A stretch of DNA of 64,000 bases from an uncultured Rikenellaceae bacterium (lineage in GTDB: Bacteria > Bacteroidota > Bacteroidia > Bacteroidales > VadinHA17): contig CAZQVL010000001.1 in the NCBI GenBank assembly GCA_964596715.1, positions 37,212 through 101,211 of the forward strand. The letters run 5' to 3'. Of this stretch, positions 56,209 to 64,000 are shown one piece after another. The notes beneath the pieces were generated by a model. The model was not told the DNA's origin. It was given only the letters and a program-made list of their open reading frames with translations, and did not search any database. Numbering within the stretch: position 1 is the stretch's first letter; each line of letters starts with the position of its first letter. The position numbers and the translations under genes are program-made.

Positions 56209-59200
56209 ATGAGTATATATAGTTCTTCTGTAAAACGACCTGTTACAACCATCCTGATTTTTATAGGTATGATTGTTATAGGATTATATTCGCTGGTAAA
56301 CCTGCCGGTGGATCTTTACCCCGAAATAGAATTGCCGTTCGTTTCAGTTCTTACAACCTATCCCGGGGCTAGTGCATCAGATGTTGAGACCAATGTAACC
56401 CGTCCGCTTGAAGATGCCCTTAATTCTGTGAGTAATCTTAAAGAGCTTATTTCTACCTCAAGCGACGGAGTTTCGGTGATTTTCCTGAGTTTTGAATATG
56501 GTTCAAATCTGGATGAGGCAATGAATGATATCCGGAGTAACATGAATTTTGTGTTGAATTTTTTGCCGGAGGATTGTGAGGACCCGACGATAATAAAATT
56601 TAACTCGAGCATGATGCCAATAATTTTCTATGCTGTGACAGCCAGTGAAAGTTATGCAGGGCTTGAAAAGATCCTTGATGAAAAAATCGTCAATCCGTTA
56701 AACAGGATTGAAGGTGTTGGTAATGTTTCACTTACTGGTGTGCCCGGGAGAAGAATATACATTGATGTCGATCCCCGCAAGATGGAGGCTTATCATCTGA
56801 CCATTGAGCAGATTGGTAGTATTCTTGGAGCTGAGAATATAAATATGCCTGCAGGATACCTTGAAATGGGACAGACAGATTATCCCCTTCGTATCCAGGG
56901 CGAATTCCCTGAAAGTGATATAGTTAAGAATATTGTAGTCAGTAACTATAATGGTAATGCAGTATATCTGAAAGACATAGCTGAAGTAAGGGATACCATC
57001 CGCGAATCAAAGCTTGATACCAAGATTAACGGAGAGCGCGGAATGGGAGTCTTTGTTCAGAAACAGTCAGGTGGTAATACGGTTAAGATTACAAGGGAAA
57101 TTGAAAAGTCTTTAGAGGATCTGCAAAAGGATCTTCCTCCCGACATAAAAATAGAGAAGCTTTTTGACAGTGCTTCTTTCATAACCGATTCGATTAACAA
57201 CCTGTCGCACACATTATTGTATGCTGCAATTTTTGTTGTTCTTGTTGTTCTTTTCTTCCTTGGAAGGTGGAGAGCGACAATAATAGTAATATTTACAATT
57301 CCTGTTTCGCTGGTAGTTGCGTTCATATATCTTTTTGTATCAGATGCTTCGATTAATATAATCTCACTTGTCTCACTTTCCATTGCAATCGGTATGGTGG
57401 TCGATGACGCCATTGTTGTTCTGGAGAATATAGCGAGACATATCGAAAGAGGAAGCCGGCCCAGAGAAGCAGCAATTTATGCGACAAATGAAGTATGGCT
57501 TGCGGTAATAATAACAACCCTTACTGTTGTTGCAGTCTTCTTCCCCCTTACCTTCGTTAAAGGTCTTACAGGAGTTCTTTTCAAGCAGCTTGGGATGAGT
57601 GTTACAATCATCATTGTAACTTCCACGGTTGCAGCAATAACCCTTACTCCGACATTAAGCGCCCTGATGCTGAAATACCGGCCGGTTAAACGGAATCCTC
57701 CATTATGGACATATGACGGAAGTATAAGAAAAGGTCTGGACCTGTTCGATAAATTCTATGAAAAAACCCTGCGATGGGCGTTGCATCATAAGAAGGTTGT
57801 CACAATTCTTTCGATAATAGTCTTTATTATATCAATGAGCCTCTTCGGTGTAGTCGATACCGAGTTTTTCCCGGAAGCGGATGAATCAACGATTTATGCC
57901 ACAGTAGAGCTTCAGACCGGAACAAGAGTGGACAAATCAGTCAGATTAGCTGATATGCTTGACAGTCTGGTCAAGGCAAAATATCCTGAGATTGACCTGA
58001 TTTCGACCTCCACAGGAAGTGATGACCAGGGAGGCTGGAGCTCGATATGGAGTGCCGGTGCAACACATATAATTCAAAGTACTTATAGTTTGATCCCTGT
58101 AAATGAGCGTAACAGAAATGTGTGGGATATTGCTGAAGAAATGAGAAAGGATTTTGCTGTTTATCCTGAAATAGTTGATTTTAATATATCCACAACAGCC
58201 GACATGGGAAGTTTTGGAGGAAACGTTGTGGAAGTGGAGGTTTATGGGTATGACATTACCGCAACAAACATTGTTGCAAAAGAACTTGCAGATAAGATAG
58301 AAAAGATAGAGGGAGCAAAGGACGTTACGATAAGTCGTGACAGGTCCAAACCAGAGCTTCAGATTATATTCGATCAGAATAAAATGAGTTCCAGCGGGCT
58401 GAATACGGCCATGGTTGCTGCAGCTGTCAGGAACAGGGTCGCAGGGCTCACTGCTACCAGATTGCGGCAGTTCGGAGATGAATATGATGTGGTTGTCAGG
58501 TATAAAAAGAATGCAAGAAGCACGCTGACTGACATAGAGAATATAGGGATAACCAATCAAATGGGACAGATTGTCAGGCTGGGTGAAATAGCTGAGATAA
58601 AAGAGTTCTGGGCTCCGCCAAGCATTGAACGTAAACGAAAAGAAAGGATCGTCAGGGTCTCCCTAACTCCATATAAGCGATCACTTACTGATCTCCAGAA
58701 AGATATCCAGGATGCAATTGATTCAACTCCAAAGCCTTCAGGAGTAATGGTCCAAATATCCGGAGCAATAGAGGAGCAGATGGAGGCATTTATGGATATT
58801 GCACTGCTTCTGGTTGTGAGCCTTATACTCGTGTATCTGGTCATGGCTTCGCAGTTTGAATCGCTCAAGATGCCATTTATCATAATGTTCTCTATCCCGT
58901 TTGCCTTCTCGGGCGTGGCAATAGCCTTGTGGGTCACAAGTACTACCCTGAGTGTAATCTCAGGAATCGGGGCTGTATTGCTCATAGGTATTGTTGTAAA
59001 GAATGCCATTGTGCTGGTTGATTTTATTAATCTGATGCGCGAGAGAGGTCTCGAATTATATGAAGCTATTGCAGTTTCAGGAAGGTCCAGGCTCAGACCT
59101 GTCTTTATGACCTCTGCCACAACTATTCTCGGAATGCTGCCACTGGCTTTAAGCAGTGGTCCGGGTTCAGAGCTCTGGAGTCCGATGGGTATTTCTGTTA

Positions 59201-59352
59201 TCGGAGGGCTGGTATTCTCAACTTTCGTTACACTTGTTCTTGTACCTGTAATTTATGCAGTTTTTGCAAAACATGGGGAAAGGAACAAACATCTTGCAAT
59301 ATATTCTGAGTTAAAGTTTCTTAACGGAGAAAATGAAAATGAGAATCAATAA
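56209..59352 (+). CDS. RND efflux transporter permease (AcrB/HAE1-like)
   Basis: The 1047-aa protein has 12 TM helices and two large periplasmic loops. It begins with RPV.T..I....I..G and contains GMVVDDAIVVLENI. Confidence 0.95.
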   Translation: MSIYSSSVKRPVTTILIFIGMIVIGLYSLVNLPVDLYPEIELPFVSVLTTYPGASASDVETNVTRPLEDALNSVSNLKELISTSSDGVSVIFLSFEYGSNLDEAMNDIRSNMNFVLNFLPEDCEDPTIIKFNSSMMPIIFYAVTASESYAGLEKILDEKIVNPLNRIEGVGNVSLTGVPGRRIYIDVDPRKMEAYHLTIEQIGSILGAENINMPAGYLEMGQTDYPLRIQGEFPESDIVKNIVVSNYNGNAVYLKDIAEVRDTIRESKLDTKINGERGMGVFVQKQSGGNTVKITREIEKSLEDLQKDLPPDIKIEKLFDSASFITDSINNLSHTLLYAAIFVVLVVLFFLGRWRATIIVIFTIPVSLVVAFIYLFVSDASINIISLVSLSIAIGMVVDDAIVVLENIARHIERGSRPREAAIYATNEVWLAVIITTLTVVAVFFPLTFVKGLTGVLFKQLGMSVTIIIVTSTVAAITLTPTLSALMLKYRPVKRNPPLWTYDGSIRKGLDLFDKFYEKTLRWALHHKKVVTILSIIVFIISMSLFGVVDTEFFPEADESTIYATVELQTGTRVDKSVRLADMLDSLVKAKYPEIDLISTSTGSDDQGGWSSIWSAGATHIIQSTYSLIPVNERNRNVWDIAEEMRKDFAVYPEIVDFNISTTADMGSFGGNVVEVEVYGYDITATNIVAKELADKIEKIEGAKDVTISRDRSKPELQIIFDQNKMSSSGLNTAMVAAAVRNRVAGLTATRLRQFGDEYDVVVRYKKNARSTLTDIENIGITNQMGQIVRLGEIAEIKEFWAPPSIERKRKERIVRVSLTPYKRSLTDLQKDIQDAIDSTPKPSGVMVQISGAIEEQMEAFMDIALLLVVSLILVYLVMASQFESLKMPFIIMFSIPFAFSGVAIALWVTSTTLSVISGIGAVLLIGIVVKNAIVLVDFINLMRERGLELYEAIAVSGRSRLRPVFMTSATTILGMLPLALSSGPGSELWSPMGISVIGGLVFSTFVTLVLVPVIYAVFAKHGERNKHLAIYSELKFLNGENENENQ

Positions 59353-59367
59353 TTTAACAAATTAAAG

Positions 59368-59664
59368 ATGATGAAGGCAATAATGATAATTTATAATCAG
59401 GCTCACACAGAGAAAATAGAGTATATGCTGGACAAACTTGGTGTCAGAGGTTATTCGCTGTGGGAGAACATGCAGGGAAGAGGCACCAGTACCGGTGTTC
59501 CGCATCTTGGTACACATACATGGCCGGAGATCAACAAAGGAGTTCTTACCATTGTTGAGGATGATATTGTAGAGACAGTACTAGATAAAGTGAAAAAAAT
59601 TGATGTTATGAACGAGGATGTCGGCATCAGGGCATTTGTCTGGGATGTTATAATGACTGTATAG
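59368..59664 (+). CDS. Small PII-like, transporter-associated protein (PG0541-like family, tentative)
   Basis: The 98-aa soluble protein starts 15 nt after the RND pump stop. Its beta-alpha-beta periodicity (MKAIMIIYNQAH.EKIEYMLDKLGVRGYS....GRG...G...G.H.WP) resembles that family. The family name is from memory. Confidence 0.6.
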   Translation: MMKAIMIIYNQAHTEKIEYMLDKLGVRGYSLWENMQGRGTSTGVPHLGTHTWPEINKGVLTIVEDDIVETVLDKVKKIDVMNEDVGIRAFVWDVIMTV

Positions 59665-59730: not shown

Positions 59731-61887
59731 CTATTCCTCTTCCTCCTCTTCAGCGTAAGCTTTGATTACAGCATCCTGAACATCTCCGGGAACCTGGGAA
59801 TATTCCGCAAACTTCATGGAATACATTGCACGTCCTCCGGTTAATGAGCTCAGAGCAGTTGAGTATTTATTCATTTCCGCGAGGGGTACTTTAGCCTTAA
59901 TAATTTCAAATCTTTTTTCACTTGACATACCAAGTACCAATCCGCGACGACTCTGGAGATCGCTTATGACATCTCCCATACGATCTGACGGAACCATGAT
60001 CTCAACATCATATATTGGCTCAAGGATTTTAGGACCGGCATTCTTGAATGCTATGCTGAATGCATTACGTCCGGCAAGCCTGAAAGATATTTCATTGGAA
60101 TCTACTGGATGCATCTTTCCGTCGTAAACATAAACCCTTATATCCCTTGCATATGATCCTGTCAGCGGACCAACTTCCATCTTTTCCATTATGCCCCTCA
60201 GTATTGCCGGCATGAAACGGGCGTCGATCGATCCTCCCACAATGCAGTTTACATAAACAAGTTTTCCTCCCCACTGAAGATCGATCTCTTCCTTATCTCT
60301 TACTGAAAGTTTGATCTCCCTACCTGCAATCTTTTGCATTGATACTTCACGGGAACCCTCTTCATAAGGTTCAATGATCATATAAACCTCACCGAACTGC
60401 CCGGCACCACCAGATTGTTTTTTATGACGGTAGTCCGCCTGTGCGGCTTTAGTTATTGTCTCCCGATATGGGATCTTTGGAGTATTTAAGTTGGCAGGAA
60501 TTCTGTAAATATTATCGAGGTGCCATTTCATTATGTTAAGATGATATTCCCCCTGTCCGTGTACTATGATCTGTTTCAGTTCCTTGGAATACTCAATAAT
60601 GATTGTTGGATCTTCAAGATGTATCTTATTGAGGGCTTCGCCAAGCTTCTCATCATCACTCTCACTCTGTGCTTTGATGGCTGTACGATATTTGGGTTCC
60701 GGAAATCTTATTTCCTCATATTTCCAGTCATTGCCGGGAGCATTCAGAGTATGATTTGTTCTGGTATTTTTAAGTTTAACTAAAGCTCCAATGTCACCGG
60801 CATATAGTTCCGACACTCTTGTCCGGTTCTTACCTGCGCAGATATATAGCTGTGAGAGCCTCTCCCTTGTACTGTTATTACTATTGATAACATCAAGGTT
60901 TTCAGTAACCTTGCCGGAATAAACCTTGAAGTAGTTTATCTCTCCAATGTGTTCTTCAATTGATGATTTAAAGATAAATACAGAAGCAGGACCTGCCGGA
61001 TCTGGTTTTACCTCTTTTCCTTTGCTGTTCACCGGTGCCGGTAAATCAGTAACTGACGGTGCTTCATTTACAATAAAATCAAGGAGTGAATCCACTCCGA
61101 CATTATTTTTCGCTGAGATACAGAACACCGGAAACATACCTCTTGTTACAATACCTTTTGCAATTCCTTTTTTTATTTCATCCTCAGTAAGGGTATCGTT
61201 TGAAAAGAAGAGTTCCATAAGTGATTCATCGCTCTCAGCTGCCTTTTCGATAAGGGCATTATGTAATTCGGCAGCTTTGTCTTTATGTTCGGCCGGTATA
61301 TCAACAATCTTTGCTGCTCCTCCCTCGCTGGGATACTGGAGCATTTTCATCTTAAGGATATCAATAATTGAATTAAATCCAACACCTTCATTAGCAGGGT
61401 ATTGAATAAGAACAACATCGTTGCCAAAGCGTTCCTTCATCATTTCAACTGACTTCTCAAAGTTGGTTTTTTCATGATCCAGGCCATTGACAACCAGAAT
61501 AAGCGGTTTATGAACGTTTTCCGCATGACGGAAATGTATATCAGAACCTACTTCAACACCATTCTGTACGTTGATAACCATTAGAGCACAGTCAGCAGCA
61601 TGCAGGGAAGAGATCACACCGCCACAGAAATCGTCTAAACCCGGTACGTCGAGGATATTAATTTTTTTGTTCTGTAATTCAGTATAAAGAACGGTTGAGA
61701 AGACAGAGTTCCCATTCTCATGTTCAATCGGGCGATAATCCGAAACTGTGTTTTTACCTTCGATTGTACCGCGTCGCTCTATAGCGCTGCCATTAAAGAG
61801 CATTGCTTCTGCAAGGGTTGTTTTTCCTGATCCGGAGTTACCAAGCAGACAAAGGTTCTTTATCTGGTCAGTCTGGTATGTTTTCAT
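59731..61887 (-). CDS. Elongation factor G paralog with divergent GTPase motifs
   Basis: It has the five-domain EF-G length (718 aa). G1 is GNSGSGKTT, G3 is DVPGLDDF (Leu84 where canonical EF-G has His) and G4 is NGLD instead of NKxD. Compare canonical fusA at 63200, which has [17 protein letters not shown] and NKMD. Confidence 0.9.
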   Translation of the reverse strand: MKTYQTDQIKNLCLLGNSGSGKTTLAEAMLFNGSAIERRGTIEGKNTVSDYRPIEHENGNSVFSTVLYTELQNKKINILDVPGLDDFCGGVISSLHAADCALMVINVQNGVEVGSDIHFRHAENVHKPLILVVNGLDHEKTNFEKSVEMMKERFGNDVVLIQYPANEGVGFNSIIDILKMKMLQYPSEGGAAKIVDIPAEHKDKAAELHNALIEKAAESDESLMELFFSNDTLTEDEIKKGIAKGIVTRGMFPVFCISAKNNVGVDSLLDFIVNEAPSVTDLPAPVNSKGKEVKPDPAGPASVFIFKSSIEEHIGEINYFKVYSGKVTENLDVINSNNSTRERLSQLYICAGKNRTRVSELYAGDIGALVKLKNTRTNHTLNAPGNDWKYEEIRFPEPKYRTAIKAQSESDDEKLGEALNKIHLEDPTIIIEYSKELKQIIVHGQGEYHLNIMKWHLDNIYRIPANLNTPKIPYRETITKAAQADYRHKKQSGGAGQFGEVYMIIEPYEEGSREVSMQKIAGREIKLSVRDKEEIDLQWGGKLVYVNCIVGGSIDARFMPAILRGIMEKMEVGPLTGSYARDIRVYVYDGKMHPVDSNEISFRLAGRNAFSIAFKNAGPKILEPIYDVEIMVPSDRMGDVISDLQSRRGLVLGMSSEKRFEIIKAKVPLAEMNKYSTALSSLTGGRAMYSMKFAEYSQVPGDVQDAVIKAYAEEEEEE

Positions 61888-62248
61888 TGTTACCTGGAAA
61901 TTTTATATTATACTTTTAATATACCCTGATTTTGAGGGGACAAAATTAATAATTTTTTAAAAACAGTTTAAGAAAGAGGTTATAATTACAAAATTATTAT
62001 TTTCTTTGCACAAGTTTTTTGAAATACAGGAGTACCGGTTTTTCTTTCCAGGTAAGTTTACAAAATTTTTTCGCGGGGAAAGATCGGGAAGGTACCTGTT
62101 AGTAGCTTACATCATTAAGTAAGAAATATTGTCTAAGAATAAAACTCAATAGCTGATTATTGTTAATGGTCAGGATTGTTAAGCCTGGATAATATGGTGT
62201 TATGAAAAAATTATGATGCTCGTTAGTAAATTAAGAAATAAAAAACAA

Positions 62249-62256
62249 TACCTTTG
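62249..62256 (+). promoter_or_regulatory. Candidate Bacteroides-type -7 promoter element (TACCTTTG) upstream of rpsL
   Basis: The sequence matches TAnnTTTG 47 nt upstream of the rpsL ATG. Confidence 0.35.
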
Positions 62257-62302
62257 CACACCATTTTTTTGAGTAAAAATTAATGCTAAAATAATTGGAT
62301 TT

Positions 62303-62677
62303 ATGCCGACAATACAGCAGTTAGTAAGAAAAGGCAGGAAAATTCTCGTTGATAAAAGTAAGGCACCTGCTCTGGATGCATGTCCTCAAAGAAGAGGGGT
62401 GTGTGTTCGTGTTTATACTACCACACCCAAGAAACCTAATTCAGCTATGAGGAAGGTAGCCAGGGTAAGGCTTACCAACCAGAAAGAAGTTAATGCTTAT
62501 ATTCCCGGGGAGGGTCATAATCTCCAGGAACACTCCATAGTACTTATCAGAGGCGGAAGGGTAAAAGATCTGCCTGGCGTCCGATACCACCTTATTCGTG
62601 GTGCACTGGATACTTCGGGAGTTGACGGACGTACTCAGAGAAGGTCGAAATATGGTGCAAAAAGACCAAAGAAATAA
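62303..62677 (+). CDS. rpsL: 30S ribosomal protein S12
   Basis: [12 protein letters not shown]...[15 protein letters not shown] is a near-universal S12 sequence. Confidence 0.98.
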
Positions 62678-62699
62678 CAACAGTTAAAGGAATAAGATA

Positions 62700-63176
62700 A
62701 TGAGAAAGACAAAACCCAGAAAGAAGATTCTGTTACCGGATCCTAAATACAACGATCCGTTTGTAACAAGGTTTGTTAATAATCTTATGCTTAATGGCAA
62801 AAAAAACCTCGCTTTTAAAATTTTCTACGACTCCCTTGATATTGTTGGTGAAAAATTCAAGAGTGAAGGCAAGACTCCTCTTGAGATTTTCAGGCAGGCT
62901 CTTGATAATGTCACTCCTCAGGTAGAAGTAAAAGCAAGGAGAGTTGGTGGTGCTACATTCCAGGTACCAATGGAGATTCGTACCGACAGGAAGGTAAGTA
63001 TCAGCATGAAAAACATGATATCCTTTGCAAGGAAAAGATCAGGCCATTCAATGGCTGAGCGGCTTGCTGCTGAGCTAATGGCCGCATATAAACTTGAAGG
63101 CGGAGCTTATAAAAAGAAAGAAGATACTCACAGGATGGCAGAGGCTAATAAGGCCTTCGCTCATTTCCGGTTTTGA
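62700..63176 (+). CDS. rpsG: 30S ribosomal protein S7
   Basis: MRK...[17 protein letters not shown] sequence, 158 aa, in str operon order. Confidence 0.98.
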
Positions 63177-63199
63177 TTATCTGATTGGCAGAAGAAAAG

Positions 63200-64000
63200 A
63201 TGGATAAAAACCTGAAATATACCAGAAACATCGGGATCATGGCCCACATCGATGCCGGCAAGACCACTGCTACAGAACGTATTCTGTATTATACCGGCCG
63301 GACTCATCGAATGGGAGAGGTACATGATGGCAATGCCCAGATGGACTGGATGGTTCAGGAGCAGGAAAGAGGTATTACAATAACTTCTGCCGCCACGACA
63401 ACATACTGGAAATACAAAGGCGAAGAATTTAAAATTAATATTATTGATACTCCCGGTCATGTTGATTTTACTGTTGAAGTTGAGAGGTCACTGAGGGTGC
63501 TTGATGGGGCAGTTGCCATCTTCTGTGCAGTCGGGGGTGTTGAACCACAGTCGGAAACTGTCTGGAGACAGGCAAATAAATACCGTGTTCCACGAATTGC
63601 CTTTATCAATAAAATGGATCGTGCAGGCGCAGATTTCTTCAATGTTGCCCACCAGATTAAAACGAAACTGGGAGCTAATTCAGTCCCTATACAAATACCC
63701 ATTGGTTCAGAAGAGGATTTCAGAGGGATTGTAGATCTTATAAGGATGAAGGCAATTGTGTATTACGAGAACGATATAACAGGTTCAAATTTTGAAGTTG
63801 AAGATATTCCGGAGGAACTTCTTGAAGAAGCAAATGAATGGAGAGGTAAACTTATTGATTCTGTGGCTGAGGTTGACGATTCAATTCTGGCCAGATACCT
63901 CGAGGATCATGATTCAATTACAGTGGATGAAGTATTAACAGCACTAAGAAAATCAGTTAATCAGAGGCTTACAGTACCGGTCCTGTGTGGAGCTGCTTTG
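63200..64000 (+). CDS. fusA: Elongation factor G (canonical), 5' partial; continues beyond the window end
   Basis: Hand-translated from ATG 63200 as [33 protein letters not shown]...[25 protein letters not shown]...AFINKMDR. It is open to position 64000 and is not in the ORF track because no stop is reached. Confidence 0.95.

Follow-up and report, generated by a model that had tools for sequence, protein, structure and literature searches.

The stretch of DNA considered here (the window) is a 64,000-nucleotide segment of contig CAZQVL010000001.1 from an uncultured Rikenellaceae bacterium of the order Bacteroidales (assembly GCA_964596715.1). Near one of its ends lies a gene for a 718-amino-acid (aa) paralog of elongation factor G (EF-G), which is read on the minus strand and stands head-to-head with the str operon (rpsL-rpsG-fusA); the last gene of that operon encodes the canonical factor, EF-G1. 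The original prediction, which was made from the sequence alone, held that this paralog lacks the catalytic switch-II histidine, that it may be an ortholog of EF-G2 from Bacteroides thetaiotaomicron, and that the divergent arrangement suggests reciprocal regulation of the two transcription units. In this study, we have examined the protein, its gene neighborhood, and the spacer between fusA2 and rpsL, which holds promoter-like boxes and a structured RNA element. The features are collected in Table 1.

Results

Translation of the open reading frame (ORF) bore out its length and the P-loop GNSGSGKTT, the switch II DVPGLDDF with Leu84, and the G4 motif NGLD on which the original prediction had been based; Pfam and NCBIfam searches with the neighboring genes likewise upheld the head-to-head arrangement across 415 bp. 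The N-terminal fragment of fusA within the window scored 404 bits on TIGR00484 and is too short to reach the cut-off of that model (659.4 bits); in the whole genome, the frame is full length at 705 aa.

The paralog matched the NCBIfam model NF058620 (EFG2_Bacteroid, "elongation factor G2"; cut-off, 1000 bits) with 1205.8 bits over model positions 1-717 of 717. A search of the whole genome (3.35 Mb in 77 contigs, 99% complete) gave 1205.5 bits for the sole EF-G2 copy above this cut-off, and the only other EF-G in the genome was the EF-G1 encoded by the neighboring fusA, to which EF-G2 is about 32% identical. Among 14 control genomes, the NF058620 cut-off was passed by that of B. thetaiotaomicron only. 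Five EF-G domains were found by Pfam, all above their cut-offs: GTP_EFTU (PF00009), EF-G_D2 (PF22042), EFG_III (PF14492), EFG_IV (PF03764), and EFG_C (PF00679). The best match in the PDB was 7uvp/8dmf (E value, 1.7e-292), which was collinear with the window protein, residues 1-718 against 1-718; we take these entries to be structures of B. thetaiotaomicron EF-G2. The 7uvp sequence reads GSSGSGKTT, DCPGSDDF, and NQLD and includes the domain IV insertion segment.

The molecule in 7uvp/8dmf was named "Tetracycline resistance protein TetQ" by its depositors, and tetracycline ribosomal protection proteins (RPPs) are related to EF-G; on that view, the window protein would itself be an RPP. We regard this identity as extremely improbable, since the protein scored only 250.7 bits on the NCBIfam model tet_protect (cut-off, 775) and 113 bits on tet_protect_Q (cut-off, 1425), its match to the TetM and TetO structures was limited to residues 9-162, and the EF-G2 model was matched above its own cut-off. 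The TetQ name was probably carried over from an erroneous annotation, and it could misdirect the transfer of annotation to related proteins. Identity as LepA, TypA, or RF3 was also rejected, the NCBIfam scores lying far under the respective cut-offs.

The motifs were compared in a MAFFT alignment of 101 EF-G2 and 59 EF-G1 proteins extracted from fetched loci. The catalytic histidine is present in none of the 101 EF-G2 sequences and in all 59 EF-G1 sequences, in every one of which switch II reads IDTPGHVDF. The switch-II region of both paralogs was aligned without gaps; therefore, the histidine has truly been replaced rather than merely shifted by an indel. The canonical EF-G of the window retains a histidine-bearing switch II and has a G4 that reads INKM, in keeping with what the original prediction had said of it. 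In EF-G2, the residue that takes the place of the histidine is leucine in most of the window's clade, serine in Bacteroides-like genomes, and tyrosine, phenylalanine, alanine, methionine, or threonine elsewhere. The same motifs were found again in 80 related species, so they are not a chance feature of this sequence. G4 is NG[LM] in 79 of the 101 EF-G2 proteins, the window's clade having NGL or NGM; it is NQ[LV] in five Bacteroides-like loci (L089-L093) and NK[LCVI] in 13 of 20 wider loci, the distant members having mostly NKL. G2 is NGNSV in EF-G2, compared with RGITI in EF-G1, and the window protein retains DxxG along with its P-loop.

The two paralogs also differ in domain IV, where the HMMER alignment to Thermus thermophilus EF-G was interrupted between query residues 512 and 540 and the MAFFT alignment had 28 gap columns in EF-G1. 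This insertion is 9 residues shorter in 13 more distant EF-G2 proteins (loci L096-L108). Han and colleagues are said to have reported in 2023 (EMBO J) that a 26-residue region specific to EF-G2 is essential for its function.

In a tree of 33 EF-G2 and 11 EF-G1 sequences (FastTree, LG+gamma), rooted on the LepA of the same genome, EF-G2 was monophyletic (support, 0.997), as was EF-G1 (0.998), and the window's clade was sister to the remaining Bacteroidales EF-G2. The protein is therefore placed in the EF-G2 clade and not with EF-G1 or LepA; BipA (TypA) is excluded by the NCBIfam scores given above, as are Tet(M) and the other RPPs, which were not included in the tree.

Among 301 Bacteroidota genomes, 21 had a protein above the NF058620 cut-off, and about 110 scored 747 bits or more over the full length; the next class, at about 580 bits, was clearly set apart. 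Many Bacteroidota genomes from outside the taxonomic class of the window organism have another EF-G-like paralog, which scores 530 to 580 bits on NF058620 and matches positions 1-511 only; it makes up a second class of EF-G duplicate that is more distant. The 80 loci nearest to that of the window (81 to 85% identity) all come from metagenome-assembled genomes of uncultured Bacteroidales, some of them labeled Rikenellaceae by NCBI. The isolate names refer to lake sediment, fens, a bioreactor, and other sources.

In all of these 80 loci that have sufficient upstream DNA, rpsL-rpsG-fusA lies divergently upstream of fusA2, and the spacer measures 405 to 425 bp in 60 of the 72 close-clade spacers. 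Of 20 representatives of seven further genera, 19 have the same arrangement. The one exception is L112 (G499:C1:598600-605700), in which fusA2 is inverted: it precedes rpsL, is read from the same strand as rpsL, and is separated by about 900 bp from the RNA element, while a promoter-like box and the RNA element still adjoin rpsL. Three genera without the RNA element also have the divergent arrangement. None of 20 other Bacteroidota genomes, seven of which are Bacteroidales of other families, showed it; since it is kept within the family and was not seen in these 20 outside genomes, the arrangement is a derived trait of this Bacteroidales family. At two loci of genus g299 (L132 and L135; G458:C22), the gap between fusA2 and fusA is about 5.3 kb, compared with the usual 1.3 kb or so, owing to an insertion between fusA2 and the str operon. 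A complete-looking genome from genus g303 of the same family (G462) gave neither an EF-G2 nor an EF-G1 at an E value of 1e-40 or better in the profile search; fusA2 may be missing from this genus or may have escaped the search.

An alignment of 72 spacers revealed a strongly conserved central block. The Bacteroidota -7 consensus is TAnnTTTG, and the fusA2 box that fits it sits in a block that is nearly invariant across these spacers; all genera have a TAnnTTTG box whose distance from the fusA2 ATG is unchanged. The gene thus has a canonical -7 box of its own, which is probably its promoter. A second block, which contains the putative distal str promoter P1, lies directly before the RNA element and is conserved in all genera; in the window's genus, the fusA2 and P1 boxes stand back-to-back, 52 bp apart. 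A box like that of the putative proximal promoter P2 was found in some other genera of the family but not in all of them.

Two of the five exact copies of CTTTGCA-N4-7-TTTTTTG in the genome lie in this spacer, on the plus strand at 62004-62021 and 62252-62271, and both precede a presumed transcript start; the pair may represent the tandem str promoters P1 and P2. The motif was rejected as a general promoter of translation genes: with five copies in the genome, none of the three outside the spacer precedes a recognizable translation gene, one standing before an uncharacterized 279-aa ORF and two having no convincing ORF downstream.

The RNA element between P1 and rpsL folds much better on the plus strand because of G-U pairs (RNAalifold, -12.2 kcal/mol, compared with -3.9 kcal/mol on the minus strand). 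Within the close clade (68 sequences), 98.3% of cells were paired, four pairs showed double changes, and none of 500 shuffles matched the observed scores. Across the 18 distinct sequences from more divergent genera, 7 of the 11 pairs of helix 2 showed compensatory changes (for example, CG to UA), with a covariation score of 0.354; shuffles gave 0.20 and slid controls about 0.13. A MAFFT alignment that had not been fitted to the model returned the same fold with seven covarying pairs.

Of the 151 genomes of the family, 101 (from 8 of its 20 genera) contained the element as judged by a covariance model, each with one copy, which invariably precedes rpsL and shares its strand; it was not found with this model in about 150 genomes from other families of the order. 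Several genera lack a second promoter-like box in the interval from the element to rpsL, and in these the element would lie in the only 5' leader. Rfam 15 gave no match at E values of up to 1 for the window spacer or for four divergent loci. A diverged copy in the genera of the family without a model match was sought with the filters off and rejected; the lone match (E value, 0.12) was antisense inside the fusA2 coding region and spurious. Mimicry of 16S rRNA was rejected as well, the local alignment score against 16S rRNA from the same genus being 20, compared with a shuffle mean of 18.1 (standard deviation, 2.1); the GGAGUAC shared with 16S helix 27 was not significant. A primer-site search found no 16S rRNA gene in the window's own genome, where it was probably not assembled.

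Tail-to-tail with fusA2, on the plus strand at 56209-59664, are a gene for an RND efflux pump (AcrB family, 1047 aa) and, 15 nt after it, one for a 98-aa P-II-like protein (Pfam P-II; E value, 4.5e-9). This pair follows fusA2 in most of the related species too.

Table 1. Features of the fusA2-str region (positions in the window)
Feature	Position	Strand	Basis or remark
fusA2, encodes EF-G2 (718 aa)	59731..61887	-	ORF without internal stop; Pfam, NCBIfam, and PDB matches
Domain IV insertion, ~27 residues (~513-539), EF-G2-specific	60271..60351	-	absent from EF-G1
G4 NGLD, residues 134-137	61477..61488	-	replaces NKxD; alignment
Codon of Leu84 (in switch II DVPGLDDF, residues 80-87), at the catalytic His position	61636..61638	-	gap-free against DTPGHVDF
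G1/P-loop GNSGSGKTT, residues 16-24	61816..61842	-	Gly first, compared with AHIDAGKTT in EF-G1
Spacer between fusA2 and rpsL	61888-62302	divergent	415 bp
fusA2 -7 box TAATTTTG (probable)	61941..61948	-	~53 nt upstream of the ATG; fits TAnnTTTG
Distal str promoter P1 (probable): -7-like TTTCTTTG, then conserved TTTTTTGA	62001..62008	+	putative role
Structured RNA element, ~100 nt	62024..62122	+	candidate str operon leader
Helix 1	62027-62030 with 62095-62098	+
Helix 2	62035-62046 with 62076-62087	+
Possible pseudoknot, GUAAGU with GCUUAC	62052-62057 with 62105-62110	+	arms never vary
Proximal str promoter P2 (probable): -7 box TACCTTTG	62249..62256	+	~47 nt upstream of the rpsL ATG
rpsL	62303-62677	+	Pfam S12
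rpsG	62700-63176	+	Pfam S7
Canonical fusA, runs beyond the window end	from 63185 (str operon 62303..64000)	+	best NCBIfam model TIGR00484 (EF-G)

Discussion

In this study, the conclusion that the ORF encodes an ortholog of B. thetaiotaomicron EF-G2 (fusA2, BT2167), in an uncultured environmental Bacteroidales lineage, is strongly supported by its sequence. The suggestion of orthology made in the original prediction is sustained by three results, the NF058620 score above the cut-off, the end-to-end match to 7uvp/8dmf, and the position inside the monophyletic EF-G2 clade. Both proteins have 718 residues in five collinear domains, a Gly-initial P-loop, and the same domain IV insertion, both lack the switch-II histidine and the G4 lysine, and each is encoded by a single gene in a genome that also carries an essential-type EF-G1, to which the identity is similar (about 32% here and 31% as reported for B. 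thetaiotaomicron [PMC6989115]). As a protein, the window EF-G2 is an ordinary member of a family that has already been described and would not surprise a specialist.

In B. thetaiotaomicron, fusA2 is the gene most induced on carbon limitation (238-fold), while fusA mRNA drops 10-fold; fusA2 is activated by BT4338 (Cur) through a 22-bp site, and it is required for gut colonization (PMC6989115). Its product "enables GTP-independent translation" (PMC10294740) and "catalyzes translocation without GTP hydrolysis" (PMC12775393). By orthology, the window protein would bind the ribosome and promote slow tRNA-mRNA translocation without GTP hydrolysis, and it would replace EF-G1 under carbon or energy scarcity; it is most likely, by this analogy, that it does the same as its B. 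thetaiotaomicron counterpart.

A paralog of this kind could alternatively be specialized for another task of EF-G, such as ribosome recycling with ribosome recycling factor, as in Borrelia EF-G2, mitochondrial EF-G2mt, or Pseudomonas EF-G1A/1B. Several EF-G paralogs do divide their tasks in this way (bioRxiv 10.64898/2026.05.25.727771), and the EFG II subfamily has diverse functions, most of them yet to be tested (PMC3150367). However, the window protein shares its curated family, its clade, and its domain IV insertion with the B. thetaiotaomicron protein, for which translocation without GTP hydrolysis has been reported, and we consider a role other than slow translocation to be very unlikely.

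The assignment to EFG II fits the divergent type that was described by Margus, Remm, and Tenson in 2011 (PMC3150367), although the placement was checked here by motifs and not against the tree of that study. The Gly-initial G1 of the GhxxxGKT type, which is typical of EFG II (PMC3150367, PMC12172202), is found in the window protein, the G2 motif RGITI is relaxed to xxxSx in the subfamily and reads NGNSV here, and, as here, an EFG I gene is always present alongside an EFG II whose domains I to III are divergent. In contrast, G4 was reported to be conserved as NKxD in EFG II, and the window's clade differs in having NGLD. The string "Bacteroid" does not occur in the main text of that paper (PMC3150367).

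Several observations weigh against a simple transfer of function from Bacteroides to the window protein. The identity to the characterized protein is about 60%, counted over the first 102 aligned residues of the 7uvp/8dmf alignment only; the histidine position is occupied by leucine here and by serine in Bacteroides, and G4 reads NGLD here and NQLD in Bacteroides. In addition, when the Cur (BT4338) consensus TATGTTnTAnAACATA was scanned, the window spacer contained no site with three mismatches or fewer, its best site having five; since the Cur box is absent, the starvation induction seen in Bacteroides is not simply transferable to this gene.

The Cur scan is considered valid, since it recovered sites with one to two mismatches 106 to 142 bp upstream of the fusA2 ATG in three Bacteroides-like genomes (L089-L091) that served as positive controls. 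Across the window as a whole, there were 9 matches compared with 6.6 expected by chance, and in the close clade, where 77 upstream regions of 300 bp or more were scanned, the best sites had three to five mismatches, which is the background level. Cur regulation as in Bacteroides is therefore not indicated here, and the control of fusA2 would differ from that in Bacteroides, the Cur box being missing. The hosts differ as well: unlike the gut Bacteroides, this lineage is uncultured, and related assemblies are named from lake sediment, a fen, and a bioreactor (AnMBR).

The original prediction inferred reciprocal regulation from the shared spacer. Under direct reciprocal control, the back-to-back fusA2 promoter and P1 would compete for RNA polymerase or share a regulator, so that EF-G2 would go up as EF-G1 and the S12 and S7 proteins go down. 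The arrangement and its spacer of about 415 bp are conserved, the two promoter-like boxes are embedded in blocks that hardly vary, and the fusA and fusA2 mRNAs of B. thetaiotaomicron move in opposite directions on carbon limitation (PMC6989115). However, four genera have 229 to 388 bp, compared with about 130 bp, between the fusA2 ATG and the RNA element, which makes the spacing 100 to 250 bp larger; in the genome with the inverted fusA2 (G499), P1 and the RNA remain with rpsL; the drop in fusA mRNA in B. thetaiotaomicron is independent of the fusA2 activator (PMC6989115); and no shared operator has been identified. Direct reciprocal control is, in our view, unlikely.

A distal str promoter would be followed by a structured leader RNA on the strand opposite fusA2, and it is most likely that this RNA would regulate the str operon and not fusA2. 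No part of the spacer is more conserved than this RNA, which keeps its place by rpsL even in the genome with the displaced fusA2. We postulate, from its covariation and position, that the element is probably a cis-regulatory leader of the str operon. It is reminiscent of the r-leaders, such as the Bacteroidia S4 and L13 leaders described by Eckert and Weinberg in 2020 (PMC7247131), which are also sense RNAs upstream of ribosomal protein operons and which are likewise restricted to a lineage, present once per genome, and built from a covarying hairpin with invariant loops. None of the 20 r-leaders in that study regulates rpsL or rpsG, and the spacer RNA is not among them (PMC7247131); unlike those leaders, it has no Rfam 15 family and no significant similarity to 16S rRNA. 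It can be envisioned that the fusA2 promoter, the back-to-back distal str promoter, and the leader RNA together form a single switch that sets the EF-G1:EF-G2 ratio and the synthesis of S12 and S7 by the energy state of the cell, in place of Cur-dependent control; we hold this to be decidedly unlikely.

Taken as a whole, the account that we favor is very probable: an ortholog of B. thetaiotaomicron EF-G2 that would act as a slow translocase without GTP hydrolysis, encoded head-to-head with the str operon in an arrangement fixed in the family, under a control other than that of Cur, and with a leader RNA that would regulate the str operon. What is modestly new is that the gene is coupled to the str operon throughout the family, that the Cur box has been lost, and that the leader RNA in front of rpsL is undescribed, well supported, and restricted to the family. 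The control of EF-G2 would have been rewired in this family, which lacks the Cur box and keeps the gene fixed beside the operon of the very factor that it would replace. With about 110 of the 301 Bacteroidota genomes carrying a full-length EF-G2-like gene, including this environmental lineage, EF-G2 is not limited to gut bacteria, and GTP-sparing translation may be an adaptation to starvation that is general in the phylum.

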